A DNA stretch of 64,000 nt, taken from the sequence record OK322699.1, one strand, 5' to 3'. Below, piece after piece: positions 1 to 26,310 of the stretch. The stretch is from Escherichia phage Sa157lw. The notes below the pieces were generated by a model, which was not told where the DNA came from, ran no database searches, and saw only the letters and a program-made list of their open reading frames with translations. Within the stretch, counting starts at the first letter, position 1, and each line of letters begins with the position of its first letter. A program made the translations under genes and the position numbers.

Positions 1-47
1 TGGATTCTATCGCAGCCGATATGAATTCAAACAACAACGGCCAGTAA
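1..47 (+). CDS. 3' end of an upstream gene truncated by the window edge (position suggests portal gp20 or a prohead core protein)
   Basis: Open frame from window start to TAA at 45-47; followed by AAGGAG RBS for the next gene; too short to identify. Confidence 0.2.
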   Translation, partial: DSIAADMNSNNNGQ

Positions 48-55
48 GGAGATGC

Positions 56-373
56 ATGATGGAAATCACAGAGATCGCCACGTTCGCTGATTTCCTGGCC
101 TCTCGTATGGACGAGCAGCGAGTCATCGATAAAGTGAACGCTCGTGGTAAACGCCGCCGCCGCTTGAAATGTGCCCCTGGGTTCAAATTGTCGGCTGATG
201 GTTCACGTTGTGAAGTTATGGACGCCAGCGAACGTCGTGTTCGCAAGATCGGCAACCGCAAAGCCCTCCGCTCTAAAAAGCGTATGGGAATGGGCTATCA
301 ACGTAAAATCGAGCGCCGCAAGAAAAAGGCTATGAAGTTCCGCAAAATGATGGGACTGAGTAAGAACAAGTAA
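56..373 (+). CDS. small highly basic protein, prohead core protein-like (gp67/gp68 position)
   Basis: 105 aa, Arg/Lys-rich, immediately upstream of gp21 as in T4 order 20-67-68-21; AAGGAG RBS. Confidence 0.35.
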   Translation: MMEITEIATFADFLASRMDEQRVIDKVNARGKRRRRLKCAPGFKLSADGSRCEVMDASERRVRKIGNRKALRSKKRMGMGYQRKIERRKKKAMKFRKMMGLSKNK

Positions 374-380
374 GGAGTTT

Positions 381-1049: not shown

Positions 1050-1095
1050 ATTTCAGCTCACTAAATACTGAAAAATCGTTCAGAAGGAAACTATC

Positions 1096-1935
1096 ATGAA
1101 ACCTGAATTGCAAAATCTGTTTGAAGGCGTTAACGGCATCAGCCCAGATTTCCTGGATAAAGTATCCAATTTGCTGGAATCGAAAGTTGAAGCGGCTCGT
1201 CTGAAAGCTATCCAAGAAACCGAAGCAGCTGGCAACGTCGAGCGCCTGAATCTGGTAGAATCTCACCAGAAAGAAATCGCCGACCTGAAAGAAAATTTCA
1301 TTCTGCAATTGGCTGGGAAAGTTGACTCATTCCTCAACGCGGTGGTTGAAGAATGGGCTAACAAAAATGCCCCAGCTATTGACGCTCAGATCAAAACTGA
1401 AGCTGCTGAACGCTTCCTCACTGGTTTCTCCAACGTGCTGAAAGAAGCAGGTGTGAGTTTCGCTACTGACCCAGACGGTCAGATTGCCGCCCTCACCAGT
1501 CGCCTTGCTGAAGCAGAACAACGCGCCAACATGGCTAATACAGAGTTGAGCCAACTCAAAGAAAGCGAGACTAAACGCCAGCGCACCGACGTAATTGATC
1601 GCATTTGTGAAGGTATGGTTGACACCAAGAAAGACACTGTTGTCAACCTGCTGGAAGGTATTGAATTCCAGACCGAGTCTGAATTCGAATCGCGTGTTCG
1701 CACCTTCCGTAATCTGGTAGAAGGTAAAGATGACTTCTCTGACAAAGTCGGTAAAGACAATGAAAAGGGTAAGCCAGATGGCGACAAGGCTGAAAAAGAC
1801 ATCAAAGAAGGTAAGAAACAGAAAAAAGAAGGTGATGATGTTGACGACGATAAAGACGACGACGACAAAGACGAAGTTGGCAAAGAAGTCAACGAAGCCG
1901 TCCGTCGCCAGATCAGCGCCATTCTGAACGGCTAA
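1096..1935 (+). CDS. 22: prohead scaffolding protein gp22
   Basis: 279 aa, coiled-coil rich, acidic KDDDDKDE C-terminus; between gp21 and gp23. Confidence 0.7.
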   Translation: MKPELQNLFEGVNGISPDFLDKVSNLLESKVEAARLKAIQETEAAGNVERLNLVESHQKEIADLKENFILQLAGKVDSFLNAVVEEWANKNAPAIDAQIKTEAAERFLTGFSNVLKEAGVSFATDPDGQIAALTSRLAEAEQRANMANTELSQLKESETKRQRTDVIDRICEGMVDTKKDTVVNLLEGIEFQTESEFESRVRTFRNLVEGKDDFSDKVGKDNEKGKPDGDKAEKDIKEGKKQKKEGDDVDDDKDDDDKDEVGKEVNEAVRRQISAILNG

Positions 1936-1948
1936 TTTTAGCAGCCAC

Positions 1949-1975
1949 AGCCCTCGAAAGGGGGCTTGATTTTGA
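1949..1975 (+). terminator. stem-loop (AGCCC..GGGGCT) followed by T-rich tract after gp22
   Basis: inverted repeat read directly. Confidence 0.4.
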
Positions 1976-2026
1976 ACTACTAAGTAATTTCAACTTAACT
2001 GAATATCAATGTAAGGAACGAGCATC

Positions 2027-3349
2027 ATGACTAAGAAACTTGTAACCGAAGAAATGCGCAAACAGTGGCTGCCAGTTCTCCAAAAAGAATCTGAAGCCAT
2101 CCAACCTCTGTCTGCCGAAAACGTAACCATCCGTCTGATGCAAAACCAGGCCGAGTGGAACGCTAAAAACCTGGGCGAATCCGACGCTCCTGGTTCTGTA
2201 AACAGCACTGTCGGTAAATGGCAGCCAGTCCTGATCGACATGGCAAAACGTCTAGCGCCGATCAACATCGCAATGGACTTCTTCGGCGTTCAGCCGCTGT
2301 CTGGTCCTGATGGTCAGATCTTCGCACTGCGTGCTCGCCAAGGTGTTGGTGACGGTTCTACTACCGCTCAGGCGCGTAAAGAACTGTTCATGAACGAAGC
2401 CGATTCCGGCTACTCTGGTGATGGCACTGTACAGGCTGGTGACCCGTCAGGCTTCAGTCAGGCTGAGATCGAAGGTTCCGGCTCTGTCGTGACCACTATC
2501 GGTAAAGGTATGCCGTCAACCGACGCGGAACTGCTGGGTACTACCACCAATCCGTGGGCGCGTGTTGGTATTACCGTTCAGAAAGCGACCGTTACTGCCA
2601 AGTCTCGCGGCCTGTATGCTGATTACAGCCATGAACTGCGTCAGGATATGATGGCAATTCACGGCGAAGACGTGGACAATATCCTGTCTGACGTGATGGT
2701 AACTGAAATTCAGGCGGAAATGAACCGTGAATTCATCCGCACCATGAACTTCAGTGCTGTTCGTTTCAAAAAATTCGGCACCAACGGTGTTGTTGATATC
2801 GCACAGGACATCTCCGGTCGTTGGGCGCTGGAAAAATGGAAATTCCTGACTTTCATGCTGGAAGTCGAAGCGAATGGTATCGGCGTTGACACCCGTCGTG
2901 GTAAAGGCAACCGTGTTCTGTGTTCTCCGAACGTGGCGTCTGCTCTGGCGATGTCCGGCATGCTGGACTATGCTCCGGTTCTGCAGGAAAACACCAAACT
3001 GGCTGTTGACCCGACTGGTCAGACCTTCGCGGGTGTTCTGTCCAACGGCATGCGCGTCTATGTTGACCCATATGCTGTAGCAGAATATATCACCCTGGCG
3101 TATAAAGGCGCGACCGCGCTGGATGCTGGTATCTTCTTCGCACCGTATGTGCCGCTGGAAATGTACCGTACTCAGGGTGAAACCACCTTCGCTCCGCGTA
3201 TGGCGTTCAAAACCCGTTACGGCATCTGTGCTAACCCGTTCGTTCAGATTCCGGCTAACCAAGACCCGCAGGTTTACGTGACTGCTGACGGTATTGCTCA
3301 AGACAGCAACCCATACTTCCGTAAAGGTCTCATCAAATCTCTGTTCTAA
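2027..3349 (+). CDS. 23: major capsid protein gp23
   Basis: 440 aa; motifs FGVQPLSGPDGQIFALRA, YVDPYA, FKTRYGI, C-terminal YFRKG match T4 gp23 pattern. Confidence 0.9.
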   Translation: MTKKLVTEEMRKQWLPVLQKESEAIQPLSAENVTIRLMQNQAEWNAKNLGESDAPGSVNSTVGKWQPVLIDMAKRLAPINIAMDFFGVQPLSGPDGQIFALRARQGVGDGSTTAQARKELFMNEADSGYSGDGTVQAGDPSGFSQAEIEGSGSVVTTIGKGMPSTDAELLGTTTNPWARVGITVQKATVTAKSRGLYADYSHELRQDMMAIHGEDVDNILSDVMVTEIQAEMNREFIRTMNFSAVRFKKFGTNGVVDIAQDISGRWALEKWKFLTFMLEVEANGIGVDTRRGKGNRVLCSPNVASALAMSGMLDYAPVLQENTKLAVDPTGQTFAGVLSNGMRVYVDPYAVAEYITLAYKGATALDAGIFFAPYVPLEMYRTQGETTFAPRMAFKTRYGICANPFVQIPANQDPQVYVTADGIAQDSNPYFRKGLIKSLF

Positions 3350-3367
3350 TCAACAGGTTTTGATAAA

Positions 3368-3397
3368 CAAACCCCGCCATGTGCGGGGTTTTTCTTT
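3368..3397 (+). terminator. rho-independent terminator after gp23 (AAACCCCGC catgt GCGGGGTTT + TTTCTTT)
   Basis: perfect 9-bp GC-rich stem and T-run. Confidence 0.8.
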
Positions 3398-3443
3398 ATA
3401 GGGATTCACTATAAGACCGCTAATAGTTTTCAATAAGTGGGCA

Positions 3444-3680
3444 ATGAACGATCATTACCTAACTTTCACAACTGGAACGCTACTCATGGCTAAAGAAACT
3501 CTGACTAAAGAAAACTCTAACTTCGCAGAATGGCATGCAGAATTAGAGCGTGTCGCTCGTTCTCAACATGGCTCTGCCGCCGATGCTATGGCGTGGCATG
3601 AAGATTATGAGTCTGGCAAAACCCCGCGTCAGGCTTGGGAAGATGAATGGGGGTGGAATGATGCAGACTCTAATTCGTAA
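3444..3680 (+). CDS. hypothetical small protein
   Basis: 78 aa ORF; true start may be internal (MAKETL). Confidence 0.3.
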   Translation: MNDHYLTFTTGTLLMAKETLTKENSNFAEWHAELERVARSQHGSAADAMAWHEDYESGKTPRQAWEDEWGWNDADSNS

Positions 3681-3891
3681 GATATATCTGGATAAGAACT
3701 ATTTGGAATCCAAAATCGAAGTTTTCTCGGCTCAAAAAATAATTGAAGACGGTGAAACGAGATATTATCTGAAACCTGACCTTTATCTTCCAGGAAGTAG
3801 TTTGAATCGCGATATAATTCAGTCGGACGGTATTACTGTTCGTTGGGAAATGGCGTCACAGGAAGACAACTGTCATAGCATAACACTTTGA
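3658..3891 (+). CDS. hypothetical small protein
   Basis: ORF 3550..3891 trimmed to internal ATG overlapping stop of upstream ORF, GGGGGTGG RBS. Confidence 0.3.
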   Translation: MMQTLIRKIYLDKNYLESKIEVFSAQKIIEDGETRYYLKPDLYLPGSSLNRDIIQSDGITVRWEMASQEDNCHSITL

Positions 3892-3906
3892 AGAGAGATC
3901 TATATT

Positions 3907-4347
3907 ATGTCAAAAGAAAAATACATATTCATCAGCCCCGCTACGAAGGAGTTCTTCATCTCCGACGTGAAAGATCGTGTTGAGAAGTTCCGCTACATGC
4001 GCAGCTATGGTCTGGCATCCGGTGATATTGATTATCAGTCACTGGACAATGATCGCCAAGATCTGATCGACGACGGTTGGCGTTTAGTTCCGTCCCCTCA
4101 GTACATTCATATCACGTTGTACTATATGAAGGACAGCGGGAAGTTCTATTCCGAAGGTGAACTCGTACTCAATCGAGGAGAAGCAGAAGCCGAACCTGCC
4201 AAAACCTGGATGTTGGCGATGGATCAGATCCGTGAATTGCTGGACTCCGGTAATCTGCCTGGCCTGATCAGGGGTTCAAAATTCGACGTGTTCGTTACTG
4301 GCCAGGGTCATCCTGGTGGATACCCACATCTGTTCCGTATTAACTGA
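3907..4347 (+). CDS. hypothetical protein
   Basis: 146 aa ORF; start carries conserved GAGAGATCTATATTATG element. Confidence 0.4.
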   Translation: MSKEKYIFISPATKEFFISDVKDRVEKFRYMRSYGLASGDIDYQSLDNDRQDLIDDGWRLVPSPQYIHITLYYMKDSGKFYSEGELVLNRGEAEAEPAKTWMLAMDQIRELLDSGNLPGLIRGSKFDVFVTGQGHPGGYPHLFRIN

Positions 4348-4355
4348 GGTCAATT

Positions 4356-4730
4356 ATGAGCAATTTACCACTGCTTCAAGTCGGTGACGTATTCATTCTC
4401 ACGGCAGAAATGACCGTTGAAACTCAGGTGCCAAAGCATTTCTTGTATTCTAATTGCAAGGGTGATTGGCAAATGGACTCTGGTTATATCACCCCTGAGG
4501 GATTCTTCGGTTACATGCAAGGACATTACGTCGTTACCAAAACAGCCCTACAAGGCGGTAGCACTGGTCATGATCCATACCCTGACGGCCATCATGTTTG
4601 GGCACAGCATACTGAAAATGAACGCATCAGAATCTGTTTCTATCAGACAGGTAGTTTCAGGAATATGCACCGGAATGTTCCAGTAGTCGGAAAGGCTAAG
4701 GCGCAAACATGGACTTGGGAGAAATTATGA
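4356..4730 (+). CDS. hypothetical protein
   Basis: 124 aa ORF closely following upstream gene. Confidence 0.4.
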   Translation: MSNLPLLQVGDVFILTAEMTVETQVPKHFLYSNCKGDWQMDSGYITPEGFFGYMQGHYVVTKTALQGGSTGHDPYPDGHHVWAQHTENERIRICFYQTGSFRNMHRNVPVVGKAKAQTWTWEKL

Positions 4731-4963
4731 AAATCAAAAAGATAGGCGCAAGCCCATTGACGGGAACAATCTTCCAGGGTACTTTGAACACCAAGACCAG
4801 TATGTGGGTCGGTGAGAAGACTGATGTGACTAACGACTGTGTAGCGGCTACGGCTGAACACATGCGTCACATCAAGAAAGACTACTGCTTCCCTACTAAA
4901 GACGGCAAGTTCCTGGTGCTGAGCGCTGAGGTTCACGACACCCTTCCTGATCGCTTCAAATAA
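4727..4963 (+). CDS. hypothetical small protein
   Basis: ORF 4709..4963 trimmed to MKIKK start with GGGAG RBS; ATGA overlap with upstream stop. Confidence 0.35.
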   Translation: MKIKKIGASPLTGTIFQGTLNTKTSMWVGEKTDVTNDCVAATAEHMRHIKKDYCFPTKDGKFLVLSAEVHDTLPDRFK

Positions 4964-4989
4964 ATTTAAAATTTATTCAATAAACGGGG

Positions 4990-5017
4990 TTTACTTCTTC
5001 AATAAACCCCGTATACT
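4990..5017 (+). promoter_or_regulatory. early sigma70-type promoter (-35 TTTACT, 16-bp spacer containing TTCAATAA, -10 TATACT)
   Basis: sequence read directly; member of repeated promoter family. Confidence 0.55.
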
Positions 5018-5066
5018 TCATTCCATAAGCAGCACAACACTGACTCTGAAATGAAGGAACTACACC

Positions 5067-5504
5067 ATGACCACAGCAAAAGTTACCATCTACGCTTTCG
5101 ACGCTTTCTCTAAATTTGACGCATTCGTCTCCTCCGCATTTGGTATCAAAGAAGTTGAAGCAGAGAAAACTTTCTGTGGTGGACTCGGCAAGTTTGCCAA
5201 CCTGAGTTTATCCCTGACAGAGTTCATGAAATCTCTTGAAGGTCACTTTGACGCCGAAACCATTCGCACTTCCTTACTCAAGAAAGACGGCACCCCTCGC
5301 AAACTGTCTGGCAAGACTAGAATTTACGATGCTGACGGCTTTACTGTGTCTGTGCATTTTACTGAAGAACCTGTGTACGAACTTTTCAGCGGGTCTGAGG
5401 ACCTCACTCACTATGTGGTCAGGAAAGGCGATTCCCGCCCTGTGTTCGAATCTGGCGACATCCTCGCCGCTATCAAAGAACTTGCGCGTCTGAATAGCCT
5501 CTAA
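5067..5504 (+). CDS. hypothetical early protein
   Basis: 145 aa; downstream of promoter and conserved leader GAAGGAACTACACCATG. Confidence 0.45.
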   Translation: MTTAKVTIYAFDAFSKFDAFVSSAFGIKEVEAEKTFCGGLGKFANLSLSLTEFMKSLEGHFDAETIRTSLLKKDGTPRKLSGKTRIYDADGFTVSVHFTEEPVYELFSGSEDLTHYVVRKGDSRPVFESGDILAAIKELARLNSL

Positions 5505-5579
5505 CAGACGTTTGTTCTAAACCTTTGAACGGGGTATGGTTAATCCATACCCTATCCCATACAAATAGAGGACTTTATC

Positions 5580-5924
5580 ATGACTACAAGAATCCCACCG
5601 CAGTCGATTGAAATCTCGAAGGTCGTCAATATCGAACCTCGTCGAGGAACCCGTAAACCCCGCGCGGGGCGTCATCTGACCACCAAGCTGGATCTTCTGA
5701 AACAGAAGTTCGGCGACCACAGTGTGTTTACCCGTATCCGCAACGCATTAAAGGAAGGGCGAACCGAGTTGGAGCTATATCGTCCGAACGGTTCGACTCG
5801 AGCGTATCAGACCACCGACGGTTTGCTGGAACTGATCCGCCTATCAGGGATGAACATAGAACCCCGTTCATCAGGAACCCCGCTATGCAGCCTGTACGTC
5901 ATCAGCAATCTTGGGGCGCTGTGA
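5580..5924 (+). CDS. hypothetical protein
   Basis: 114 aa ORF. Confidence 0.4.
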   Translation: MTTRIPPQSIEISKVVNIEPRRGTRKPRAGRHLTTKLDLLKQKFGDHSVFTRIRNALKEGRTELELYRPNGSTRAYQTTDGLLELIRLSGMNIEPRSSGTPLCSLYVISNLGAL

Positions 5925-5929
5925 GTTCT

Positions 5930-6352
5930 ATGAAGAAGTATATCGTTCTTATAACGGGTTCCCGTTCTATAACTGAGCGGGACAAAATATTTGCCAAATT
6001 AGATGAACTCTTAATCCCTCACGAGATAGAGACGTTTATTGAAGGTGAAGCAGTGGGTGTGGATCTGATATCCCGTGATTGGTGTGAAATCAATTATGTG
6101 CATATCACACCAATGCCGATTCCTCAAAATTACCATACGTTATATGGGAAAGGTGCGGGCAATCAACGTAACAAAGATATGCTGGACAAGGCTCTAACAT
6201 TGGCGAAGCAAAAAGATCTTGAGGTCTTTGGAATTGCATTATGGGATGGTTCGTCTACTGGGACGCAAGACATGATCAAGCGCATGAAGAAAGCGGGAAT
6301 AAATGTCAATATCACTCTCATGGGCAAACCCAAAACCAAACGATTGTTATAA
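5930..6352 (+). CDS. Rossmann-like SLOG/DprA-LOG-like protein (DUF2493-like)
   Basis: ORF trimmed to MKKYIVLITGSRS; motifs ITGSRS..GEAVGVD..DGSSTGT resemble SLOG family. Confidence 0.35.
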   Translation: MKKYIVLITGSRSITERDKIFAKLDELLIPHEIETFIEGEAVGVDLISRDWCEINYVHITPMPIPQNYHTLYGKGAGNQRNKDMLDKALTLAKQKDLEVFGIALWDGSSTGTQDMIKRMKKAGINVNITLMGKPKTKRLL

Positions 6353-6382
6353 ATAAATTTGCCACCCATGAGGAGTTATACC

Positions 6383-6553
6383 ATGTTACAAATACTGTTG
6401 GTGCTTTGTGTCGCATTTACCATGTACTTCATGGCACGCATCGGTTTTATTACTTTAGATGACATGAAGGGTATCCCACGTGAACCCAAATTCATCTTTC
6501 TGAAGAAGTTTGCCAAAAAGTTCTCAGAAAACTTTATTTATCATCTACCATGA
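6383..6553 (+). CDS. small single-pass membrane protein
   Basis: 56 aa with hydrophobic N-terminal helix (ORF 6359..6553 trimmed to ATG). Confidence 0.3.
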   Translation: MLQILLVLCVAFTMYFMARIGFITLDDMKGIPREPKFIFLKKFAKKFSENFIYHLP

Positions 6554-6557
6554 TTAA

Positions 6558-6583
6558 ATACCCCCAAAATTGGGGGTATTTTT
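6558..6583 (+). terminator. stem-loop ATACCCCC aaaatt GGGGGTAT + TTTT directly abutting the next start codon
   Basis: inverted repeat; also sequesters the G-rich RBS of the 6584 gene. Confidence 0.5.
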
Positions 6584-7312
6584 ATGAACGCACAAATCTA
6601 TGATGTCCTTTCCTCTGGCAATGCATTTAGCAATCCGCTTCCATCCCTCTCCGGTCCTTCTCAGGATTTAATAACCAGTGGCATCACCAATATACCATTG
6701 ATAACTGCCAACGCTACTCCGGAGATGCAGGCGGCTATGGCAGCTGGTGGACTAACACCAGAAAAACTCACAGCAGCCAGCACCATGTATAGCACCGCCA
6801 ACACAGGGATAACAACTCTGAACACATATGGCGACCAAAGTATCAATGACGCGTATTCTCGCATCGGTACTTCCGTGTCATACAAATCAGGTCTGAAGGG
6901 TATATCACGAGAGCCAAACAATTGTGATTTGATCAACAAGGCTTTTGGTGTTGTTCAGGATTTAGGACGCCAATGGCTGAATGCTATGGAAGGCGCTCTA
7001 CAGACCGTAACAAACAAGATATCGGAATTGTATGAGATGATCATGGAAGGTGCCTCAGAAGGAATGGCAAAGCTGCAGGAATTGGCTGCAGAAGTAACGG
7101 GACACATCAATACTGCGATAACCGCAGTCAACGGGGTTATAAGTGATATTACAGATGGTATAGCCGCAGAACTTGCACACATTGAAAGCATGATCAAAGA
7201 GTGCTTGAATTTCTCTTTTGCTAACGTGCTCGGGGAATGGGCTAAAGATCTGTGCGCCGGAGGTGTTATTGACAAAATAGGGACTCCAGCATTAAAAGAA
7301 TCCCTGAAATAA
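6584..7312 (+). CDS. hypothetical protein (Ser/Thr/Ala-rich N-terminus)
   Basis: 242 aa ORF. Confidence 0.45.
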   Translation: MNAQIYDVLSSGNAFSNPLPSLSGPSQDLITSGITNIPLITANATPEMQAAMAAGGLTPEKLTAASTMYSTANTGITTLNTYGDQSINDAYSRIGTSVSYKSGLKGISREPNNCDLINKAFGVVQDLGRQWLNAMEGALQTVTNKISELYEMIMEGASEGMAKLQELAAEVTGHINTAITAVNGVISDITDGIAAELAHIESMIKECLNFSFANVLGEWAKDLCAGGVIDKIGTPALKESLK

Positions 7313-7313
7313 A

Positions 7314-7934
7314 TCAATGACGAGCAGGGAGGACTCCCACTGGTTCGATGCCTTCGATCATCAGGGAGTCCACTCCAACATCGCTCAGGCGAATCCAAAC
7401 CTTACCCCCTGGCCTTATCTCATAGATGTTCATCTCGTTTCCAACAGCAGACCCATTCACAAAAACGCCTTGAGTAGCAATCCGAATAGGCGTTTTGGTG
7501 TTGTTGATTATCTGAAAAGATATCGTGATATCCCTTGTCAATTCCACATTTCTTGCTTTTGTATATCTCCTCAATTTTTCAAAGAAAGATGGATTGAATG
7601 TGGCTATGATGCTGTTGTTTTGTGAGTAGTAAATACTGGCAGACAGATAAGGGATTTTTCCCTCATCACCTTTCCTCAATAGAGGGATCGTGGTTTTCCA
7701 GTACGGTCTCAACGCCTGGTTGTTATCATCAAAACAACCGACGGCTTGTATGGTTTGGAAATTCTGGAAGTCTGCCACAACTTGATCCAGTAACTTTTTA
7801 TTACATTTGTCGACATCAGCAGAAATATTGACTGGTATAGTTCTGATTTCAGGATCCCAAAGATCGGTGACAGAAATCACGGACGTGACAAAGATACGGC
7901 AGCTTGTAAGTACAAGCACCATTATCATCGTCAT
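7314..7934 (-). CDS. putative lipoprotein
   Basis: ORF 7314..8012 trimmed to MTMIMVLVLTSC; lipobox L-T-S-C after hydrophobic stretch. Confidence 0.4.
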   Translation of the reverse strand: MTMIMVLVLTSCRIFVTSVISVTDLWDPEIRTIPVNISADVDKCNKKLLDQVVADFQNFQTIQAVGCFDDNNQALRPYWKTTIPLLRKGDEGKIPYLSASIYYSQNNSIIATFNPSFFEKLRRYTKARNVELTRDITISFQIINNTKTPIRIATQGVFVNGSAVGNEMNIYEIRPGGKVWIRLSDVGVDSLMIEGIEPVGVLPARH

Positions 7935-7997
7935 GATCCATTTTCTGAATCCGCGTATCAGGAACACTAAAAAATTCTCCACAGCAAAGGTGCTAAC

Positions 7998-8495
7998 ATG
8001 ACAGGTGTACAATTCAAAAACGAAAATCCTAATTTCGCGGCTTCCGATAAATGGCGCTTAACCATCGGAGACCTGGTGCTGCTAACCCGTTCGATACACG
8101 ACTTCAGTATCCCTGGCGTGTATTCCGAAGGTATCGAAGGCCCATCCCCTGGCGATGTCCTAAACTCTATACCTTCAGAACGTCTCACGTATGACCCCAT
8201 CGTATTTACGTTCGTTATCGATGAGAGTTGGTACAACTGGGAACAGATTTACAATTGGATCGCTTCGAACGCGGGTTCAGATTTAGCCGTCAGTAGAGAT
8301 ATTACGATTGAACTTTTAGACAACATGAACCGTCCTGTTGGGCTTCAGTTGCTTCTAGAAGAAGGGCGACCAACAGCGCTAGACAACGTGTTGGTTGACG
8401 TGGATGCATCGGTTCCTCAGTTGGTCACAACGGTGACATTCAAATATCTGAAACTGACTCCGACCCGCGTAACCCGCGAAATTGATAAACAATAA
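7998..8495 (+). CDS. hypothetical protein
   Basis: 165 aa ORF. Confidence 0.45.
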   Translation: MTGVQFKNENPNFAASDKWRLTIGDLVLLTRSIHDFSIPGVYSEGIEGPSPGDVLNSIPSERLTYDPIVFTFVIDESWYNWEQIYNWIASNAGSDLAVSRDITIELLDNMNRPVGLQLLLEEGRPTALDNVLVDVDASVPQLVTTVTFKYLKLTPTRVTREIDKQ

Positions 8496-8533
8496 GTTAT
8501 AATACAGAGAGTTGAAACAGCAGGAAATAAATC

Positions 8534-8989
8534 ATGAGTGAAACAAAATTTGAAACAATGAAGACCGAAGATATAATCGCGGAATTAGATCCTCTTATTT
8601 CGGTGAATCCTGAAGACATGAATTTAGACCAAATATCATTGAAAATTGGTCGTTCATGGATGGCTGTCCAGCGCCATTACATTCGTGAAGGGCGTTATCT
8701 AGAATTTTTGACAGGAAAATTCCGTCAAATCGATCTTTATTTACGTCGGTATTATGCAGGGGAATTACCACCCAATATTTATGTCGAACGTCCCCTGAAA
8801 GTTCGCCCCCTGAAATCTGATATAGACGTTTGGGTAAAGGCTGATGACGATTACATTGAGTTATCGAGCATGTTGCAAGAACAAAAAGCCAAAGTAAAAT
8901 TAATCGAAAGTAGTTTAGAACGTTTGAATAAACTCGGCTATGAAGTGAAAAATGCGATTGATTGGCGAAAATACTTGGACGGCATGTGA
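8534..8989 (+). CDS. hypothetical protein
   Basis: 151 aa ORF with AGGAAATAAATCATG start context. Confidence 0.45.
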   Translation: MSETKFETMKTEDIIAELDPLISVNPEDMNLDQISLKIGRSWMAVQRHYIREGRYLEFLTGKFRQIDLYLRRYYAGELPPNIYVERPLKVRPLKSDIDVWVKADDDYIELSSMLQEQKAKVKLIESSLERLNKLGYEVKNAIDWRKYLDGM

Positions 8990-9735
8990 TGGTTTCCCTG
9001 CAGGCTTTGCGTAAACTCAATGATTTTGAGAACCGCCATTACACATTTCAGCAGTATGCCTTGCCCTTTAAGGAACTGACTTGTGTAACAACGGAAAACG
9101 GACGCCATTATGTGTCTCCAACAGGCGTCAAACTCACATCTGTAACAACGATGTTGGGGCGTACCGGAGATCATACATGGTTAGAAGCCTGGCGGGACAA
9201 GTTAGGACACGAAGCCGCCGATATCGAAACAGAGCGTTGCGCAGACCGTGGGGAAAAACTTCATTTGGCCTGTGAATTATATCTCAAAAACAGGCCGATG
9301 AAGGAAGTGTTAGAAGCCGCAGGGGAATACGTGTTTATGTTTAAACAGGTCTTCCCCTACCTGAACAAAATGAGCAAGATATACGCGCAGGAGATTCCGT
9401 TATATAGCGAAGTCCTTGGTCTTGCTGGTCGTGTTGATCTCATCAGCGTTTACGAGGGAATCCCTAGCATTATCGATTTCAAAACATCCAACACCCTGAA
9501 AACTCGGAGCATGATAGAAGATTACAGCATTCAACTATGCCTGTACTCAGTCATGTTTCAACAGATGTTTAATGTTAAGATCGAACGTTTGGTCAATATT
9601 ATATCTAACGAAAATTCTCTTGTCCCGACTATAATCGAATTTAATCGAAAAGACGTTATTTCTAAAATGTTTGATCGTGTTCGCCTGTATCATAAAATGG
9701 ATAAAGAACAGAACGGGATCTGGGCGGATCGCTAA
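8989..9735 (+). CDS. PD-(D/E)xK family nuclease (RecB/Cas4-like)
   Basis: motifs GRVDLI .. IIDFKTS .. QLCLY; start coupled to upstream stop (TGATG). Confidence 0.5.
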   Translation: MVSLQALRKLNDFENRHYTFQQYALPFKELTCVTTENGRHYVSPTGVKLTSVTTMLGRTGDHTWLEAWRDKLGHEAADIETERCADRGEKLHLACELYLKNRPMKEVLEAAGEYVFMFKQVFPYLNKMSKIYAQEIPLYSEVLGLAGRVDLISVYEGIPSIIDFKTSNTLKTRSMIEDYSIQLCLYSVMFQQMFNVKIERLVNIISNENSLVPTIIEFNRKDVISKMFDRVRLYHKMDKEQNGIWADR

Positions 9736-9763
9736 ATACTCCATAATATTGGGGGAATTAGTG

Positions 9764-11269
9764 ATGTCAGAAATTCAAATAATCAAAGTTAACGAAGTGC
9801 GCATGCGAATCTTGGCGGAAGACTATATCCGCGAAGAACTCAATGATTACTTCAAATTTGAAGATCCTAATTTCCAACCGAATCCCTTCAGTAAATGGGA
9901 TGGCGTGGTACGCTTGTTCACAAAGAGTTCTGGCCTTATAGACATCGGTCTGTTGTTTGAGGTGTTTAAGTTCTGTAAGATGAATGGTTACACCATCAAA
10001 TTAGATCCCGCCTTAAAATATATCCAAGATATACCAGACGAAGAGATACATACATTTATCAATTCCCTGAACGCTGTTTACCGTGATGAAAACAAGCAAT
10101 ACCAAATCGCAACAGTGCGCGACTATCAATTCGACTCAGTGGCCACAGCAATACGCCAATCCAGATGCGTGCTAGAAGCGGCTACGAGCGCGGGTAAATC
10201 GTTTATTTTGTACATCATGGCGCGTTACTACAGGCAACGCAGAGAGGCACTGGAAAGCAATCTCAAGACGTTGATCGTTGTACCTTCCATTCACTTGGTG
10301 ACTCAGTTGTATGACAACTTTGAGGAATACAGCCATGGCACAAATTGGAATACCATGATGAATGTCCAGATGATATGTGAAGGTGCAACAAAGGATATAT
10401 TCAAGCCCATAGTCATTTCCACTTGGCAGGGTATTCAGAATCAGCCCAAAGAATGGTTCCATCAATTTGGGGATATTGTTGTCGACGAAGTACACACATC
10501 TAAATCTGAAAAGCTATCTTATATCCTGAACAACTGCATTAATGCTGACCAAAGATTGGGAGTAACCGGAACCCTCGCGAATACAAAGGTTGCAGGGTTG
10601 CAGGTCGTTGCCCATTTTGGAGCATACCATAAAATTATTACAGCACGTGATTTAATAAATCTTGGTTATGCCGCAGATATCCATGTCAACATGATTGAAG
10701 TCATACATCCCATGGCGGATTGTATAGAAATGCATGGTGCTGAGTACCAAAAGGAAATAGAATTCCTCATAGCGAATGAACGTCGAAACGAGTTAATAGC
10801 CAGAATGGCATTGTCTTTGAAAGGTAACGTGGCCGTTATGTTCGAACGCATTGACGCCCATATGATGATTGTTTATGAAATGCTTTCAGCCGTTAAGAAA
10901 AACGTATTTGTCATTAACGGCGAAGTTAAGACAGAAGTTCGTAAACAAATTCAGGCAGCGATGGAAGAGGGCGAAGATATAACACTGCTGGCATCTTATG
11001 GGACCATGCAACAGGGAGTGTCGATCAAAAAACTTCATCATTTGATATTGGCACACCCGAGTAAATCCTATATTCGTGTCATACAGACTTTAGGGCGTCT
11101 CATGCGCCAGCACTCTTCAAAGGATGTTGCCAAGATCTGGGATTTAGTAGACAACTTGCGTTACAAAGGATTTTCGTACAACCATGCCCTCAGACATTCG
11201 CATGAGAGATATAAATTTTATCTTATGGAGCGACACCCTGTACAAATGAAGAAAGTGTCGCTCCAGTAA
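9764..11269 (+). CDS. uvsW: UvsW RNA-DNA/DNA-DNA helicase
   Basis: 501 aa; Walker A ATSAGKS, DEVH box, C-terminal LHHLILAHPSKS..QTLGRLMR..WDLVDN match T4 UvsW. Confidence 0.9.
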   Translation: MSEIQIIKVNEVRMRILAEDYIREELNDYFKFEDPNFQPNPFSKWDGVVRLFTKSSGLIDIGLLFEVFKFCKMNGYTIKLDPALKYIQDIPDEEIHTFINSLNAVYRDENKQYQIATVRDYQFDSVATAIRQSRCVLEAATSAGKSFILYIMARYYRQRREALESNLKTLIVVPSIHLVTQLYDNFEEYSHGTNWNTMMNVQMICEGATKDIFKPIVISTWQGIQNQPKEWFHQFGDIVVDEVHTSKSEKLSYILNNCINADQRLGVTGTLANTKVAGLQVVAHFGAYHKIITARDLINLGYAADIHVNMIEVIHPMADCIEMHGAEYQKEIEFLIANERRNELIARMALSLKGNVAVMFERIDAHMMIVYEMLSAVKKNVFVINGEVKTEVRKQIQAAMEEGEDITLLASYGTMQQGVSIKKLHHLILAHPSKSYIRVIQTLGRLMRQHSSKDVAKIWDLVDNLRYKGFSYNHALRHSHERYKFYLMERHPVQMKKVSLQ

Positions 11270-11270
11270 T

Positions 11271-11648
11271 TCATTTATCTTGATTCACATAGGCGGGGGT
11301 TGCCTCGCCGTCTTTGTTAGAACCGAACAAACAACCCATCGTGTTGATGCATTGTTGTAGAACTTCCGGCTCAAGAATCTGACTCATCAGTTCTTCATTA
11401 GATTCCATCAGCGGGATGACTTTCACTTCCCGCGCCTGTCCTTGTTGGATAATGCCGATATACAGACCTTTGGTGTCTGGCAGTAACGGGATCACCATCA
11501 TTGGTGTCACAACAAACTTAGAAGTGCGATAGAGGCTGTGTAAGTAAACACCTTTCAATGTCGGTTGTTCTTCTACCAACATTGAAGACATTGAAAGGTT
11601 GGATTCTTGAACTTCCCCCACTGCATATAAACCCACGAATTGTTTCAT
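11271..11648 (-). CDS. hypothetical protein
   Basis: 125 aa ORF convergent with uvsW. Confidence 0.4.
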   Translation of the reverse strand: MKQFVGLYAVGEVQESNLSMSSMLVEEQPTLKGVYLHSLYRTSKFVVTPMMVIPLLPDTKGLYIGIIQQGQAREVKVIPLMESNEELMSQILEPEVLQQCINTMGCLFGSNKDGEATPAYVNQDK

Positions 11649-11984
11649 ATATCACTCTCTTGTTAGTAAACATAACTACATAATAATCTCATGCTGTGTT
11701 TAGACCAAATAAATTATTTTGCTAGTTGAATAAAAATCGCTTTCTTGTTGAACAATCCGTGCGTAATATACGAGTTGTGAGCTTTGCGAGCAACGAGTAT
11801 TATCACGAGCGAAGCGAGTAGACTGATAAAGAAAGGTTTTATTAAAACAGAATATTATAAATGCCGTCAGGCATTTATTTATCGCGCGTAGGGCATTTTA
11901 ACACTTGTTCTATAACTGCAAACACGCGATACTAATTTGCGTCAAACATGACTTGAACCCCACTATATTTTGAGGATATAAACA

Positions 11985-12653
11985 ATGCAAGAGATCACTC
12001 TCTCTGAACGCACTTTACAACTGCTGGCCAACTTTGAAACCATTTGCCCTTCTATCGTTCTGGCACCTGGTAAAAAGCTGCGCACTGTTAACGACTCCAG
12101 CACCGTCATCGCTATCGCTGACATCGACGAAGACTTCCCGTTTGAATTCCCTATTTTGGACCTGACCAAACTTCTGGCCATTCAGCGTCTGCCTAGTTTC
12201 AAAGGCGGTAAAATCGAAATGTCGGAAGATCATATTTTACTGAAAGGTGAAAACTCGCAGCTGCAATTCTGGCGCTCAGCAAAAGAATTGACTGTCGTTC
12301 CTGCCGACAGCATTGATCTCCCGTCCGTTGAATTCGAAGCGACGGTCACTCCTGAAAAAATGAAAGAGCTGACCCGCGCCTGTTCTACTCTGGGACACAA
12401 AACTGTTCGTCTGGTTGCCAGCGGCGGTAAAACCCGTCTGGTCGGTACGACTACGACTATCGATAATTCCAACGATTACACCGTTGAATTGGGTGAAACT
12501 GCTCTGGCTGATTTCGCTATGCCTGTCGACGTTGTTAACCTGAAAATGATCGAGGGCAACTATGTGATCCGCGCCTGTGCTGAAATGCAGCTTGTTAACT
12601 TCCAGTCGGCAGATGGTACCATCAACTACTACGTTGGCATGCAGCTGGATTAA
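11985..12653 (+). CDS. 45: sliding clamp gp45
   Basis: 222 aa; N-terminal LLANFETICPSI pattern like T4 gp45; followed by gp44/gp62. Confidence 0.85.
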   Translation: MQEITLSERTLQLLANFETICPSIVLAPGKKLRTVNDSSTVIAIADIDEDFPFEFPILDLTKLLAIQRLPSFKGGKIEMSEDHILLKGENSQLQFWRSAKELTVVPADSIDLPSVEFEATVTPEKMKELTRACSTLGHKTVRLVASGGKTRLVGTTTTIDNSNDYTVELGETALADFAMPVDVVNLKMIEGNYVIRACAEMQLVNFQSADGTINYYVGMQLD

Positions 12654-21038: not shown

Positions 21039-23255
21039 ATGATTGAATCATTAACATTTAAAAATGCGGTAGCAACCGTCGCGCCGTCTAACCATGTAAT
21101 CGTTGTGGATATCTCCGGTTCCATGTACCGTTCACTTCCTGAAGTTCGCAAGCATCTGAAGGAAAATCTCCCGTCTCTGGTTAAACCAGAAGATACCGTC
21201 AGCATTCTTTACTTTTCATCCCGTGGTGATTTCGGTACGGTATTCGCTGGCCGTCAGATCAATAGCGCGACCGATCTCAGTGAAATCAATAAACTGATTG
21301 ACCGCTTCCTGCAACCGTCCGGTTGTACGGGATTTGTAGAACCTCTGAAGTTGGCTGCTGAAACCGCGTTGAGCCTGAACAAACCTGGTTATGTCAATAA
21401 CCTGGCGTTCATGACCGACGGCTATGACAACTGCTGGCGCTCTAATGAAATTCTGGCAGCAGCTGAAGTACTGCCCAAGGCGTTCGATAATATTACATTC
21501 ATCGAATATGGCTGGTATTGTAACCGCGAACTTCTGGCTCTGATGTCCGAGCGTTCTGGCGCGACTCACGTGTTTGCCGAAGGTCAGACTGAATATCAGA
21601 CCGAACTGGAAAACGTACTGAAATCATCTACGCCGAAAGTGGTTGTTGATGTTCCCCTGGTTTACACTCATGCCATCTACGTTGAAAACGGCGTGGCAAC
21701 TGTGCTAGCCGTACAACCCGATGAAGAACACCCGATTGGCCACGTCAGCATCCCTGAAAGCGTTTCTCAGCTGTGGGTTGTAAACCCTAACATGATCGAC
21801 CAGCTGGATAATCTGGCAGACACCCAGGCGGCATACGTGCTGGCATTCTATGGCGTGTACACCATGGACGCCGATCTGGTCTGGGCCGCGCTGAAGAAGA
21901 CGGGTGACGTCCGCTTCATCAAACAATACAGCAACTGTTTCACCAAGCAGGACTATTCCAACATCAAAGTCGATCTGACCCAGGCTATCGTGGATGAAAC
22001 TCTACGCGGCGTAGATGGCATCGATTACAATATGGTTCCAGCTGAAGATGCAACGACCATTGTTGATGTCTTGACCTACCTGGCCGAAGCCGATGTCTCT
22101 GTTGTCACTAAGCATCCATTGTTCTCTTACAACAGCATCGGTCGCGGCACTGTGCAGAAAGTTGATGACACTGAAGACAAGCTGGCTGAACAAATCGCCG
22201 AAGCCAAAACCAAAGCAGAGCGTAAAGCGCTGGCTCTCAAACTGGCTGAGCACGAAGATTGGACACCGGAATTTACTCCGGTTGATGACAAAGGGATTGT
22301 CCCAATTAGCAATCTGGTCTACAATTCAGAGCGCCCTAACATCAGCATTCAGACCGTTCAGCATGGGACGGTTGTTGTGCCGGAGTTCGTACAGAAGAAA
22401 TATGAACTCCCTGAAGAACTGGGAACCTGGCGTTATCGTAATTACACCATCGTCAAAGATGGAATCATCAACCTGAAGACGATGCCGATTACTGCCGAAT
22501 CTCCGATTGTCCGAGCTAAGGTTGTCCAAGATTTGATCGCCATGGGCGTTAATGTATTTGGTGGACCGGAAATCTTCATCGTTAATTTAGAAAGCGTTCC
22601 GATGGTCAACCGCGCCATGACCAAGAACATCAGTGCTGCCGAATTCTTCGCTGACAACGTTCGTCGCGAAGCGCTGAAGGCAAAACAGAAAGTTCTGAAA
22701 TTCTATCGTGATGAACTGGTTGGCAAAGGCAATGCAACTGGTCTGGCTTCTAAATATGGTAAAGAAGCCGCCGATTTCTTGTCGGCAAATGGCATTCGCG
22801 ACTACGGGTTCTCGCCGAAAACTACTTCTGTGGAATCAACCGATGTCTACATGAGCCGTGAGCTGAATGTGAAAATCAAAGGTGCTTCGTCGCTGCCGAG
22901 CATTGCGTCAGTTATCAAAAAGCAAGCAGATGGTAAAAAACTGAATGTCGCTGATCAGTTGATTGCCAATGCTTTGGCCGAATACGACGCTTTTGTTAAA
23001 TCGCCAATGATCACCAGCGTACCTGAAGAGACTCAGAAAAAGCTGATTGAAAGCTGGATCGGAGACGCAGCAAAAGCGGCCATTAACGAAGTCCGCGCCC
23101 TGAACAAAACTCTGTCTAAAGTAGTTTACGGCATCGTCGCTGGTCATGGTTGGTTCACTGATTTGGATCTGGAAGAGTCTACGATGGATGTAGAAGTTGA
23201 TGGGGTGAAATACACCGTCACTGCCGAACTGGCCGAAAAAGAAATCAAAATCTAA
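21039..23255 (+). CDS. von Willebrand factor A (vWA) domain protein with MIDAS motif
   Basis: 738 aa; N-terminal VVDISGSM (DxSGS) and downstream FMTDGYDN consistent with vWA/MIDAS. Confidence 0.55.
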   Translation: MIESLTFKNAVATVAPSNHVIVVDISGSMYRSLPEVRKHLKENLPSLVKPEDTVSILYFSSRGDFGTVFAGRQINSATDLSEINKLIDRFLQPSGCTGFVEPLKLAAETALSLNKPGYVNNLAFMTDGYDNCWRSNEILAAAEVLPKAFDNITFIEYGWYCNRELLALMSERSGATHVFAEGQTEYQTELENVLKSSTPKVVVDVPLVYTHAIYVENGVATVLAVQPDEEHPIGHVSIPESVSQLWVVNPNMIDQLDNLADTQAAYVLAFYGVYTMDADLVWAALKKTGDVRFIKQYSNCFTKQDYSNIKVDLTQAIVDETLRGVDGIDYNMVPAEDATTIVDVLTYLAEADVSVVTKHPLFSYNSIGRGTVQKVDDTEDKLAEQIAEAKTKAERKALALKLAEHEDWTPEFTPVDDKGIVPISNLVYNSERPNISIQTVQHGTVVVPEFVQKKYELPEELGTWRYRNYTIVKDGIINLKTMPITAESPIVRAKVVQDLIAMGVNVFGGPEIFIVNLESVPMVNRAMTKNISAAEFFADNVRREALKAKQKVLKFYRDELVGKGNATGLASKYGKEAADFLSANGIRDYGFSPKTTSVESTDVYMSRELNVKIKGASSLPSIASVIKKQADGKKLNVADQLIANALAEYDAFVKSPMITSVPEETQKKLIESWIGDAAKAAINEVRALNKTLSKVVYGIVAGHGWFTDLDLEESTMDVEVDGVKYTVTAELAEKEIKI

Positions 23256-23293: not shown

Positions 23294-23611
23294 ATGAATA
23301 TGAGCAACAAACCGACTTATGTTGATGTCATGCGCGATTTGGCCCAATACGCATGTGACAACCTGAACATGGAAACTTGGCGCGACGGCGATCATAAAGA
23401 AAAGTTCGATAATATCGACGACAACATCGATGCGTTGGCTCCTCTTCGGGCCAAGAGCGATCTCGGCGGTGATGATCTTGACATGATTGAACTCATCATG
23501 GAAGTTGAAGAACAATATGATGTTGAAATCAGTGATGACTGGGTAGGCAAACATGGTGATGATCCCACGCTCGGCGAATTAGCTGAATTGGTAGTTGCCC
23601 TCAGCAAGTAA
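23294..23611 (+). CDS. acyl carrier protein-like protein lacking the phosphopantetheine-acceptor Ser (DDLD instead of DSLD)
   Basis: C-terminal DLGGDDLDMIELIMEVEEQYDVEISDD mirrors ACP helix II [20 protein letters not shown]..IPDE. Confidence 0.45.
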   Translation: MNMSNKPTYVDVMRDLAQYACDNLNMETWRDGDHKEKFDNIDDNIDALAPLRAKSDLGGDDLDMIELIMEVEEQYDVEISDDWVGKHGDDPTLGELAELVVALSK

Positions 23612-23619
23612 ACCAAAAG

Positions 23620-23648
23620 AATCCCCAATATTTATTGGGGATTTTTAC
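23620..23648 (+). terminator. stem-loop AATCCCCAATA ttt TATTGGGGATT + TTTT
   Basis: 11-bp inverted repeat read directly. Confidence 0.6.
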
Positions 23649-24294: not shown

Positions 24295-24582
24295 ATGACA
24301 AAGGAACAAGAACTCGCTTTGTTCTCTATGGTTCGCAGTAATGTTAAATTGAGTTTTAGACAAGTGGACTCCATTATTGATCTTATGAAAATTAAGAATT
24401 CCATAGATAACGATCATTTGCGCACCGCTCTTTTGGGATTGTTGGAATTCGTTTTGCGCGGATCTGATCTTGGACCAGTGAATGATATTGACGACCTGAC
24501 CAAATTGTTAAACACTGGCGGTGATGGTTTCGATACCGCTCGTATTCTGATTAACTGTGGTCCTAACAAAGAAGAGGTATGA
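24295..24582 (+). CDS. hypothetical small protein
   Basis: 95 aa ORF. Confidence 0.35.
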   Translation: MTKEQELALFSMVRSNVKLSFRQVDSIIDLMKIKNSIDNDHLRTALLGLLEFVLRGSDLGPVNDIDDLTKLLNTGGDGFDTARILINCGPNKEEV

Positions 24583-24583
24583 T

Positions 24584-24742
24584 GTGGACAAAGATTTGGT
24601 TTGGGAAATCGTGAAAGGTATCCTGGTAATAATTGCTGTGGTCTTTATCCTAGGAGGAAACTTCTTCTATTGGTTATTGCGGTATGAAGAGAAGCGTCGA
24701 GAGCGGAAAGAACAGAAGAGAAAAGATCGATGGATGAACTAA
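24584..24742 (+). CDS. small membrane protein (possible GTG start)
   Basis: ORF 24557..24742; hydrophobic helix ILVIIAVVFILGG then basic tail; start ambiguous. Confidence 0.25.
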   Translation: MDKDLVWEIVKGILVIIAVVFILGGNFFYWLLRYEEKRRERKEQKRKDRWMN

Positions 24743-24774
24743 CTAAGGGATAACCCTATATCCCGAGGTGTGTC

Positions 24775-25224
24775 ATGTTCCTTACATCCTTTATTGACTG
24801 GATGAATATCATAAATGGCCTGAGGATCCCTGTTGGGAACCTCGGGCTTTCTCGTTCTTCTATGCCGCAAATCGATGCCGACAAACAAGAAGATTTTCAC
24901 AAATATCTTGAAGACAACGGCGTGTCTATAGATGCTGCGCAAGTGCCCATCAAAATGCTTCGTCTTACCCAGAACGAAATCAACAAGATGAAGGTCTGGA
25001 AGATTATGAAGCAAATCCGAAATAAGAAACCTATGGGTCGAGTTTGGGTGTCTTCTGACAATTACGTTGTTGACGGATCTCACCGATTTGTCGCTGCGTT
25101 GAACATGGACGGCAAACAGCGCATGAAGGTCTACAAAGTTGATTTGCCAGCGATGGAATTTGTTAAACTCGCTAAACAGTTTCAAGGGGTGCGATACAGA
25201 ACGGTCAGCGATACCCGTTTCTGA
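24775..25224 (+). CDS. ParB/Srx-like nuclease domain protein
   Basis: 149 aa; VVDGSHRFVAA resembles the DGxHR core of ParB N-terminal/sulfiredoxin fold. Confidence 0.45.
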   Translation: MFLTSFIDWMNIINGLRIPVGNLGLSRSSMPQIDADKQEDFHKYLEDNGVSIDAAQVPIKMLRLTQNEINKMKVWKIMKQIRNKKPMGRVWVSSDNYVVDGSHRFVAALNMDGKQRMKVYKVDLPAMEFVKLAKQFQGVRYRTVSDTRF

Positions 25225-25303: not shown

Positions 25304-25993
25304 ATGAAACGTTTAATCCTCGGGGTTGTGCTGGCAGGTCTGGCATTACCCGCCGCCGCCAAGCTGAACTCCACAGGTGACAAACTGTGGTCTGATCTTT
25401 CCTACTGTGCTGGGTTCTCCCAGGCCGTGGCTATAGACAAGTCCGGTTCCATAGAGAATTTCGCTGAACTTTGGAACACGGGTAACGTCTCCACTGCTGT
25501 TGTTAATGCTGGGATTGAGTTCAACCGTTACAAACAGGGAGCCTACAACTTGAAAGGCTACCTGAATGACGATGAATTTAACCGAGGAGGCATGGAGGCT
25601 GGCGATCTCATCATGACTGGCCGTATGGGCACACAAGGCCGTATGACTGTAAGGCAATGCCGTTCTCTCCCCTCTCCGGCATTACAGAAGGGTGTGCAAA
25701 TCGGGCGTCGACATTTGGATCTGATCAATGATGGCAACCAATGCATCAAGGTGTTTGAATATAGTGCCGACCAAGAATCAGATCGACGTTTGAAAAAGGA
25801 ATGGCGGACACGTGCCCTTGGATTGAGAGCATGGCTCGTAGAAAACGATTATTACTACGAGGATCGTGTTCAGAACGGATTGAAAGATCTTTCCACTAAT
25901 TTGTCTGTCAATCTAGACGACCCAAGGCTTTCGCGTGAACTCAAGCAAACACGGATTGACTGCGACAATATGATGAAGGAGAACGAAAGATGA
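25304..25993 (+). CDS. secreted (signal peptide) protein
   Basis: ORF 25139..25993 trimmed to MKRLILGVVLAGLALPAAA with AAGGAG RBS. Confidence 0.5.
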   Translation: MKRLILGVVLAGLALPAAAKLNSTGDKLWSDLSYCAGFSQAVAIDKSGSIENFAELWNTGNVSTAVVNAGIEFNRYKQGAYNLKGYLNDDEFNRGGMEAGDLIMTGRMGTQGRMTVRQCRSLPSPALQKGVQIGRRHLDLINDGNQCIKVFEYSADQESDRRLKKEWRTRALGLRAWLVENDYYYEDRVQNGLKDLSTNLSVNLDDPRLSRELKQTRIDCDNMMKENER

Positions 25994-26310
25994 GAAACAT
26001 AATATTCTTGTTATTCTTTTCTATGTTGGCATCATTCCAAGTTATGGCGACTCCGGCCAGCAAATTGAATATTTGCGCGGCCTGGTTGTCTACTTATCAA
26101 CAATTTCACCCTGATGATAAAGATACATCTATCCTTTTATCGGATTATGAAGGTGAGTTGAAACGCCTTGATCTCTACAGCGTGGATCAAATAGAGAATG
26201 CTTTAGATTTGCCAATGATGGAGTCCGCTGCCGACAATAGCAAACAGACGATCAAAGATCTGACTATGTGTCGGGAAATAGCCACTAATTTCGTTGGAAA
26301 TCAAAGATAA
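25990..26310 (+). CDS. secreted (signal peptide) protein
   Basis: MRNIIFLLFFSMLASFQVMA signal-like N-terminus; ATGA-coupled to upstream gene. Confidence 0.45.
   Translation: MRNIIFLLFFSMLASFQVMATPASKLNICAAWLSTYQQFHPDDKDTSILLSDYEGELKRLDLYSVDQIENALDLPMMESAADNSKQTIKDLTMCREIATNFVGNQR

Follow-up and report, generated by a model that had tools for sequence, protein, structure and literature searches.

The window analysed here, a stretch of 64,000 nucleotides from Escherichia phage Sa157lw (record OK322699.1), contains an open reading frame of 149 aa whose motif VVDGSHRFVAA was read by the first-pass annotation as a ParB/Srx-like domain standing alone, with possible roles against host defences or in DNA modification. 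What does a phage do with a solitary domain of this kind? Our analysis identifies the protein as a single-domain, particle-associated ParB/Srx-fold member of a large uncharacterised phage family, and not as a partition protein.

The gene, its surroundings and the predicted fold

Both the frame and the motif were borne out by the ORF listing and the sequence, and they lie beyond chance: Vi01 and many Kuttervirus genomes encode a protein 100% identical to it, homologs turn up by tblastn in 407 phage records, and a family HMM run against the window returns this frame with E=6.6e-56 and detects no second copy of the family in the 64 kb. The orthologs include Vi01_117c (the identical protein), LIMEstone1 CCD57662.1, Sajous1 gp192 and Guerrero gp115. 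The window belongs to a Kuttervirus (Ackermannviridae, Vi01-like) genome, and a 4-kb segment surrounding the gene shares 98% identity with Salmonella phages Guerrero, ST2 and others. The features of the gene and its product are as follows.

24765..24769, + strand: Shine-Dalgarno-like GAGGT, read from the sequence, 5 nt before the ATG
24775..25224, + strand: CDS of the solo ParB/Srx-fold protein (ORF listing: ATG start, 149 aa, end coordinate includes the stop)
24778..24819, + strand: N-terminal helix, aa 2-15 (FLTSFIDWMNIING); H2-15 in the AF2 model, pLDDT 62-70
24853..24870, + strand: N-terminal motif R27-S-S-M30-P31-Q32 ('R..MPQ'), family-specific, N-terminal to the canonical ParB/Srx core
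24928..25179, + strand: ParB/Srx core, aa 52-135 (strand, Box I-like loop, helix, two strands, GxxR, helix, strand, helix)
24958..24993, + strand: Box I-like segment L62-R-L-T-Q66-N-E68-I-N-K-M-K73 (family consensus LK.TQ.E.N..K)
25042..25059, + strand: strand beta-2 and its end, V90-W-V-S93-S-D95 (family 'IIvS.D')
25066..25098, + strand: Box II or P-motif, VVD100-G101-S102-H103-R104-FVAA (residues 98-108); DGSHR is the solo-clade variant of the consensus DGHHR

On the opposite strand, a 148-aa ORF (24739-25185, - strand) shadows the ParB/Srx gene almost exactly; it is purely mechanical, the homologs belonging to the plus frame, as the HMM match to that frame indicates.

The gene sits in a replication/lysis-type region, within a co-directional block flanked on both sides by terminator-like hairpins at about 23264 and 27180 (+ strand), a further hairpin being called at about 23620-23643 (- strand); sigma-70 and terminator scans of the window were at chance level. 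Of T4-type late promoters (TATAAATA) the window has 3, with 1.7 expected, and none is near the gene; a search for an Ackermannviridae transcriptome paper found none. The block is preceded by a VWA-domain protein and an acyl carrier protein, and it is followed by two signal-peptide proteins annotated as spanins. The VWA-domain protein is a 738-aa von Willebrand factor A-domain protein (21039-23255, + strand) with a MIDAS-like DISGS near its N-terminus, followed by the acyl carrier protein at 23294-23611 (+ strand); its ortholog is a confirmed virion protein of LIMEstone1 (6 peptides) and is represented by 1 spectrum in Sajous1. Directly upstream of the gene, the segment 24211-24774 is variable among Kutterviruses (compared with Vi01, locus L009, 2157-3000, and rabagast, locus L002): the place is taken by denV (pyrimidine dimer DNA glycosylase) and a small ORF in Vi01, rabagast and Sajous1, and by a 95-aa ORF (24295-24582) and a 61-aa predicted membrane protein (24557-24742) in the window and in Guerrero. 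The downstream genes at 25305-25993 and 25990-26310 (both + strand) overlap by 4 nt, have signal-peptide-like starts and are called i-spanin and o-spanin/lipoprotein in relatives. An obvious lipobox cysteine context was not seen in 25990-26310, so the spanin annotation may deserve checking.

The fold named by the first-pass annotation was upheld by structure prediction but not by profile. Pfam, NCBIfam and PADLOC gave no match to the protein even at E<=10, the PF02195 and NCBIfam ParB models among them. The AF2 model covers the full length as one domain plus a short N-terminal extension, and Foldseek matches it to M. xanthus ParB, Noc and KorB. In addition, the protein has a GxxR P-motif, G101-S102-H103-R104, with the Arg near the beginning of the helix that follows strand 3 (model secondary structure H102-111, E116-122, H126-134), and a ParB/Srx fold is close to certain. 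That the domain stands alone was likewise sustained: the protein is a single domain, no annotated ParA or other partition ATPase lies closer than about 6-8 kb to the Guerrero ortholog, and the 149-aa sequence contains no ParA-binding motif (L/F/I)G(K/R)G(L/F/I).

Conservation was computed over 170 non-Ackermannviridae domains, to which all percentages in this paragraph refer. In the R..MPQ motif, which is found in Bcep22 gp75 too, R27 is kept in 97%, M30 in 96%, P31 in 98% and Q32 in 96%. The Box I-like segment retains Q66 (99%), E68 (76%) and K73 (86%), and its spacing to the GxxR motif suggests that it corresponds to the ParB 'QPR' box and to E30 of SerK. At the end of strand beta-2, S93 (92%) and D95 (96%) are conserved, and in the hhalign alignment D95 faces the Asp that is conserved in the DdrB-like 'APIVG.D' segment. 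Box II is the most uniform part, with D100 at 99%, G101 and H103 at 100% and R104 at 91%. Position 102 is His in 75% and Ser in 16% of the domains, and the window protein has Ser. Motif alignment would put this position at the register of the catalytic Glu of ParB (GERR) and of Cys99 of sulfiredoxin; Ser102 at a catalytic register where most of the family has His means that catalysis may be altered or lost. The DGSHR form is found in solo proteins of <=200 aa in 27 of its 28 occurrences; fused forms have DGHHR and the giant DarB-like proteins DGHHQ. The putative active-site constellation is kept (R27, Q32, Q66, K73, S93, D95, D100, G101, H103 and R104), and ten polar residues are invariant or nearly so both in the Ackermannviridae clade and family-wide. 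The N-terminal helix mostly precedes the domain boundary of many fused relatives, in which profile matches typically start at positions 13-23; that it holds a packaging or targeting signal is speculation.

The family, its fusion partners and its neighbours

By tblastn, identities are 83-100% within Ackermannviridae, about 48% in Vibrio phages, about 33% in Aeromonas 65-like T4-type phages and 27-32% in Ralstonia and Pseudomonas 60-kb podophages. The protein matches phrog_2859 at E=3.2e-45, its residues 2-147 aligning to profile positions 316-467 of 740, as do 66 of 66 scanned relatives. An exhaustive profile search returned 4,870 cluster representatives with E<=1e-3, of which 2,275 reach E<=1e-10, a family size of about 4,900 counted as representatives at 50% identity. 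Among the best 150 of the 4,870 representatives, 68 are solo proteins (<=200 aa); the other 82 exceed this length, reaching up to 2,359 aa and often having two copies of the domain. A PDB search with the single sequence and two family profiles gave no significant match; the best profile matches were SerK/1vk1 (E 0.56-1.3), restricted to the motif, and matches to VWF at E of about 0.3 were rejected as noise. PF08857 appeared below threshold in a few relatives only.

Part of this is already public: the very same protein is on record with a ParB/Srx annotation and as present in virions, its name in UniProt and GenBank being ParB/Sulfiredoxin or ParB N-terminal domain protein. The general idea that ParB-fold proteins occur solo in phage virions and within polyvalent proteins goes back to 2017; a 2024 review of Ackermannviridae does not mention the protein. 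As far as profile comparison can tell, the phrog_2859 family has no Pfam or NCBIfam model and is distinct from both PF02195 and PF18763. A survey of the ParB-CTPase fold in 2025 was seeded with PF02195 (PMC12704722), and the family was therefore probably missed there. The same survey describes the binding of CTP, ATP or GTP by ParB-fold proteins via the GxxR arginine and the existence of short single-domain phage ParB-fold proteins, and the heading of its section 9 states that nucleotide specificity is reliably predicted neither by sequence analysis nor by AlphaFold3 (PMC12704722).

The domain is fused to Portal_Mu+GNAT+Zeta toxin, MuF-like head-morphogenesis modules, Zeta/AAA_33 kinases and RelA/SpoT, and further to ADP-ribosyltransferases (including ART-PolyVal), Acb1 and HINT/inteins. 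The family is thus one of the polyvalent modules in the sense of Iyer et al. 2017, and the window protein is a solo form of it. In Bcep22 gp75 (4,602 aa, 'DarB-like antirestriction protein') the domain lies at aa 979-1093 (E=1e-28), and the homolog of gp75 in phage JC1 is a virion protein detected with 51 peptides (PMC9144972). Pseudomonas phage Itty13 (NC_070969) has a stop-free frame of at least 4,112 codons at 2-12337 (- strand), antisense to the annotated gp01-gp03, with the order SLT, ParB/Srx family domain (aa 1073-1187), PBECR1, Eco57I-type methylase, ResIII/SNF2 helicase, LPD3 and LPD39. The codon-position GC of this frame (0.69/0.46/0.90) resembles that of the real virion gene gp04, and the annotated gp02 peaks at position 1; the GenBank CDSs gp01-gp03 look like wrong-strand calls over one giant polyvalent protein. 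In both Bcep22 gp75 and the giant ORF of Itty13 the Box II Arg is replaced (DGHHQ), and R..MPQ, TQ.E, S.D and DGHH are kept. The canonical phosphate-binding Arg is therefore dispensable in this branch of giant DarB-like virion proteins.

From IMG/VR, 113 loci were collected, 100 of which have a family ORF, in 26 clusters. In 24 non-redundant lineages, the positions up to ±2 from the family gene are occupied by helicases, RegA, clamp loader, exonuclease, RNase H, UvsY, PhoH-like and recurrent cytidylyltransferase-like genes. The expectation that solo homologs adjoin virion genes was not borne out, there being no enrichment of virion genes at these positions in the 24 lineages. A PF01467 domain is present at the N-terminus of three large fused proteins and in the immediate upstream neighbour of the largest solo cluster, and a PDB search identifies it as a NadM-type NMN adenylyltransferase (NMNAT; 2qjt E=4e-7, 1f9a, 1ej2). 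Altogether, an NMNAT is fused to the family domain (5 loci, L014, L019, L083 and L087 among them) or lies within 4 kb of it (34 loci, including L071, where it is adjacent) in 39 of the 100 loci. L019 also has a CCA-adding/poly(A) polymerase head domain. The link is essentially confined to the DGHHR sub-clade, with one DGSHR-clade locus only, at 1.4 kb distance; no NMNAT-like ORF was found in the window, and a literature search for a link between the family and NMNAT found no paper.

Presence in the particle and possible roles

Orthologs have been reported in virions by mass spectrometry for three phages, and two proteomics papers already place the protein among virion proteins. In LIMEstone1, the 450-nt ortholog is flagged 'confirmed structural protein' in the record, and Table 2 of the proteome study has an entry for an unknown structural protein of 17.31 kDa, detected through 5 unique peptides at 35.57% coverage; suspected carry-over proteins were represented by 1 peptide and <5% coverage, and for each of the 12 unknown structural proteins a structural counterpart exists in ViI (PMC3296691). 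In the Sajous1 preparation of virions, the clearly non-structural RegB (31 spectra), SSB (5) and glutaredoxin were present too; some carry-over is thus evident, and it is possible for the ParB/Srx ortholog too. The phiD3 proteome paper covers 10 major bands only and is uninformative. Taken together, the protein is probably a genuine virion component.

We prefer, with about even confidence in the model as a whole, that the protein is a virion-carried nucleotide-binding or phosphotransfer module that probably leaves the particle together with the DNA and has its effect early in infection. It would be incorporated into the virion as the solo counterpart of the domain found in DarB-like antirestriction proteins of Bcep22-like phages and in other polyvalent virion proteins, and most likely be released into the cell with the DNA. 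Early in infection it would then bind a nucleotide or transfer phosphate, and might serve host take-over or counter-defence. These parts differ in strength. A nucleotide ligand is rather likely, that the protein is an ejected, delivered effector is put forward tentatively, and a role specifically in counter-defence seems fairly unlikely. Against the model are the possible carry-over in the Sajous1 preparation, the replication/lysis-type location, the lack of a T4-type late promoter nearby, the replication and nucleotide-metabolism neighbours in the 24 environmental lineages, and Ser102 at the catalytic register. In addition, the only link to a characterised enzyme is one sub-threshold sequence echo (SerK, E about 0.6).

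In the main rival, the protein is a cytoplasmic accessory enzyme of nucleotide or NAD metabolism (a SerK/SbnI-like kinase or an NTP-dependent partner), made during infection and detected in virions through incidental carry-over. We consider this unlikely, though it survives better than the others: the window has no NMNAT-like ORF and the NMNAT link belongs essentially to the DGHHR sub-clade, the similarity to SerK is non-significant (E 0.56), and detection in three phages, with a LIMEstone1 signal (5 peptides, 35.6% coverage) comparable to that of genuine structural proteins and not to that of 1-peptide contaminants, argues against carry-over. A bolder combination is also conceivable, and quite improbable: the family would be an unmodelled ParB/Srx enzyme with a SerK-like DGHHRW box, and the solo form of Ackermannviridae would be preloaded and injected to phosphorylate or hydrolyse a nucleotide-type small molecule at entry. 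If this were true, the small molecule could be an NTP, an NAD+ precursor or an immune signalling nucleotide, and the frequent fusion or adjacency to NMNAT in environmental phages would point to a new non-P-loop kinase step within the reconstitution of NAD+ by phages against NAD-depleting defences.

Two further explanations are each improbable. In one, the protein is a ParB-like DNase or nickase, virion-borne or not, which attacks unmodified DNA of the host or of competitors and spares the hypermodified phage DNA. Some ParB/Srx proteins are reported to be nucleases (Osa, a ParB-methylase), such a role was considered for polyvalent ParB domains (Iyer et al., PMC5512222), the conserved D95, D100 and H103 could bind metal, and the DNA of Ackermannviridae is hypermodified (PMC5889632). 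However, the single domain fills the length and a DNA-binding domain is absent, the family is present in many phages that lack known DNA modification, and Iyer et al. themselves favoured nucleotide sensing or degradation, since the ParB domains were never displaced or accompanied by other DNases (PMC5512222). In the other, a decayed ParB/Srx domain serves as a non-catalytic structural, DNA-associated or assembly part of the head or neck. The detection of orthologs in virions would agree with this, as would the His to Ser change at the catalytic register, almost exclusive to solo proteins, and the loss of the GxxR arginine in the DarB-like giants, where the domain is tolerated in its DGHHQ form; however, the near-invariance of the ten polar residues, D100, G101, H103 and R104 included, is a pattern typical of a ligand-binding or active site.

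ParB-like proteins are known from some systems of DNA modification (DndB) and from the partition of plasmids and prophages. The fold alone would speak for such a role here, as an enzyme of thymidine hypermodification (5-NeOmdU) or a canonical ParB partition or CTP-clamp protein, which is essentially refuted: 5-NeOmdU synthesis was reconstituted from ViI gp67, gp160, gp226, gp243 and gp247, to which the window protein does not belong (PMC5889632), homologs occur in phages outside the 5-HMUDK groups, the phage is virulent, and the protein has no PF02195 or TIGR-type match, HTH, C-terminal dimerisation domain, ParA-binding motif or nearby ParA.

A ligand or an activity, if found, would provide an annotation for thousands of phage proteins and could show the role of a ParB-fold module at the first moments of infection. 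What is new here, namely the unmodelled family, its distinctness from DdrB-like ParB, the link to NMNAT and the solo-specific DGSHR, should be taken as leads and not as findings on the window.

Comparison with known ParB/Srx and particle-carried proteins

With canonical ParB, Noc and KorB the protein has in common the fold of the N-terminal domain, on which the Foldseek matches rest, the GxxR P-motif and a Gln at the Box I position. It differs from them in having no PF02195 match, HTH, C-terminal dimerisation domain or Box III, and the Glu of GERR is replaced by Ser or His in the phrog_2859 family. In contrast to sulfiredoxin, whose catalytic Cys lies in GGCHR, the corresponding position is Ser102 in the window protein and His in most of the family; moreover, the protein is phage-borne and virion-associated and has no link to peroxiredoxin. 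The free serine kinase SerK (5x0b/1vk1) and SbnI (5ujd) are proteins of about 240-250 aa with a second domain, which the window protein lacks, and it has DGSHR and not DGHHR. With a non-significant match (E 0.56-1.3) and no C-terminal substrate domain, it does not belong to these kinases (PF08857/DUF1015 relatives).

DdrB-like ParB domains, with DdrB of phage P1 as prototype, are phage-only, occur solo or in polyvalent proteins and are packaged in the head (Iyer et al. 2017, PMC5512222); they are now Pfam PF18763. The window protein resembles them in its ParB/Srx fold, its restriction to phages and prophages, its solo or polyvalent occurrence, its association with the head or virion and the lack of a ParA partner; the evidence for these traits of distribution and packaging is at the level of the family, with mass spectrometry of virions for the orthologs. 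In addition, the Asp at the end of strand 2 (Asp/Asn in DdrB-like domains, D95 here) and the GxxR-type box align across both families. However, PF18763 does not match the window protein, and no match was reported for 79 relatives scanned at E<=1e-3/1e-4. Direct comparison also failed: hhalign against P1 DdrB and an iterated HMM of 204 domains gave nothing, and the profile-profile probability against the DdrB N-domain alignment was 0.8%. Alignment was confined to the core common to both, where 'pIIvS.D.YvlDGhHR' pairs with 'APIVG.D.VVESGNGR'. The motifs differ (TQxE and DG(H/S)HR in the window family, ELQPRDR and ESGNGR in DdrB), the model of the window protein lacks the extra Tyr-bearing helix known from DdrB-like domains, a place where hhalign needs a gap, and the N-terminal R..MPQ element belongs to the family of the window protein. 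The phrog_2859 family and DdrB-like ParB are at most sister families in the superfamily.

T4 IPI-III, Alt and DarA have no sequence or fold relationship to the window protein, in which no T4-type capsid-targeting sequence or protease site was identified; a paper on injected T4 internal proteins (PMC12373910) deals with the ParB-like domains of host GmrSD and not with this protein. The likeness to the T4 internal proteins, Alt and the Dar proteins of P1 is one of life style, since these are small or large particle-carried proteins of T4-like or P1-like myophages that are active at DNA entry, as the window protein may be. The domain of the window protein is, moreover, embedded in DarB-like antirestriction giants.
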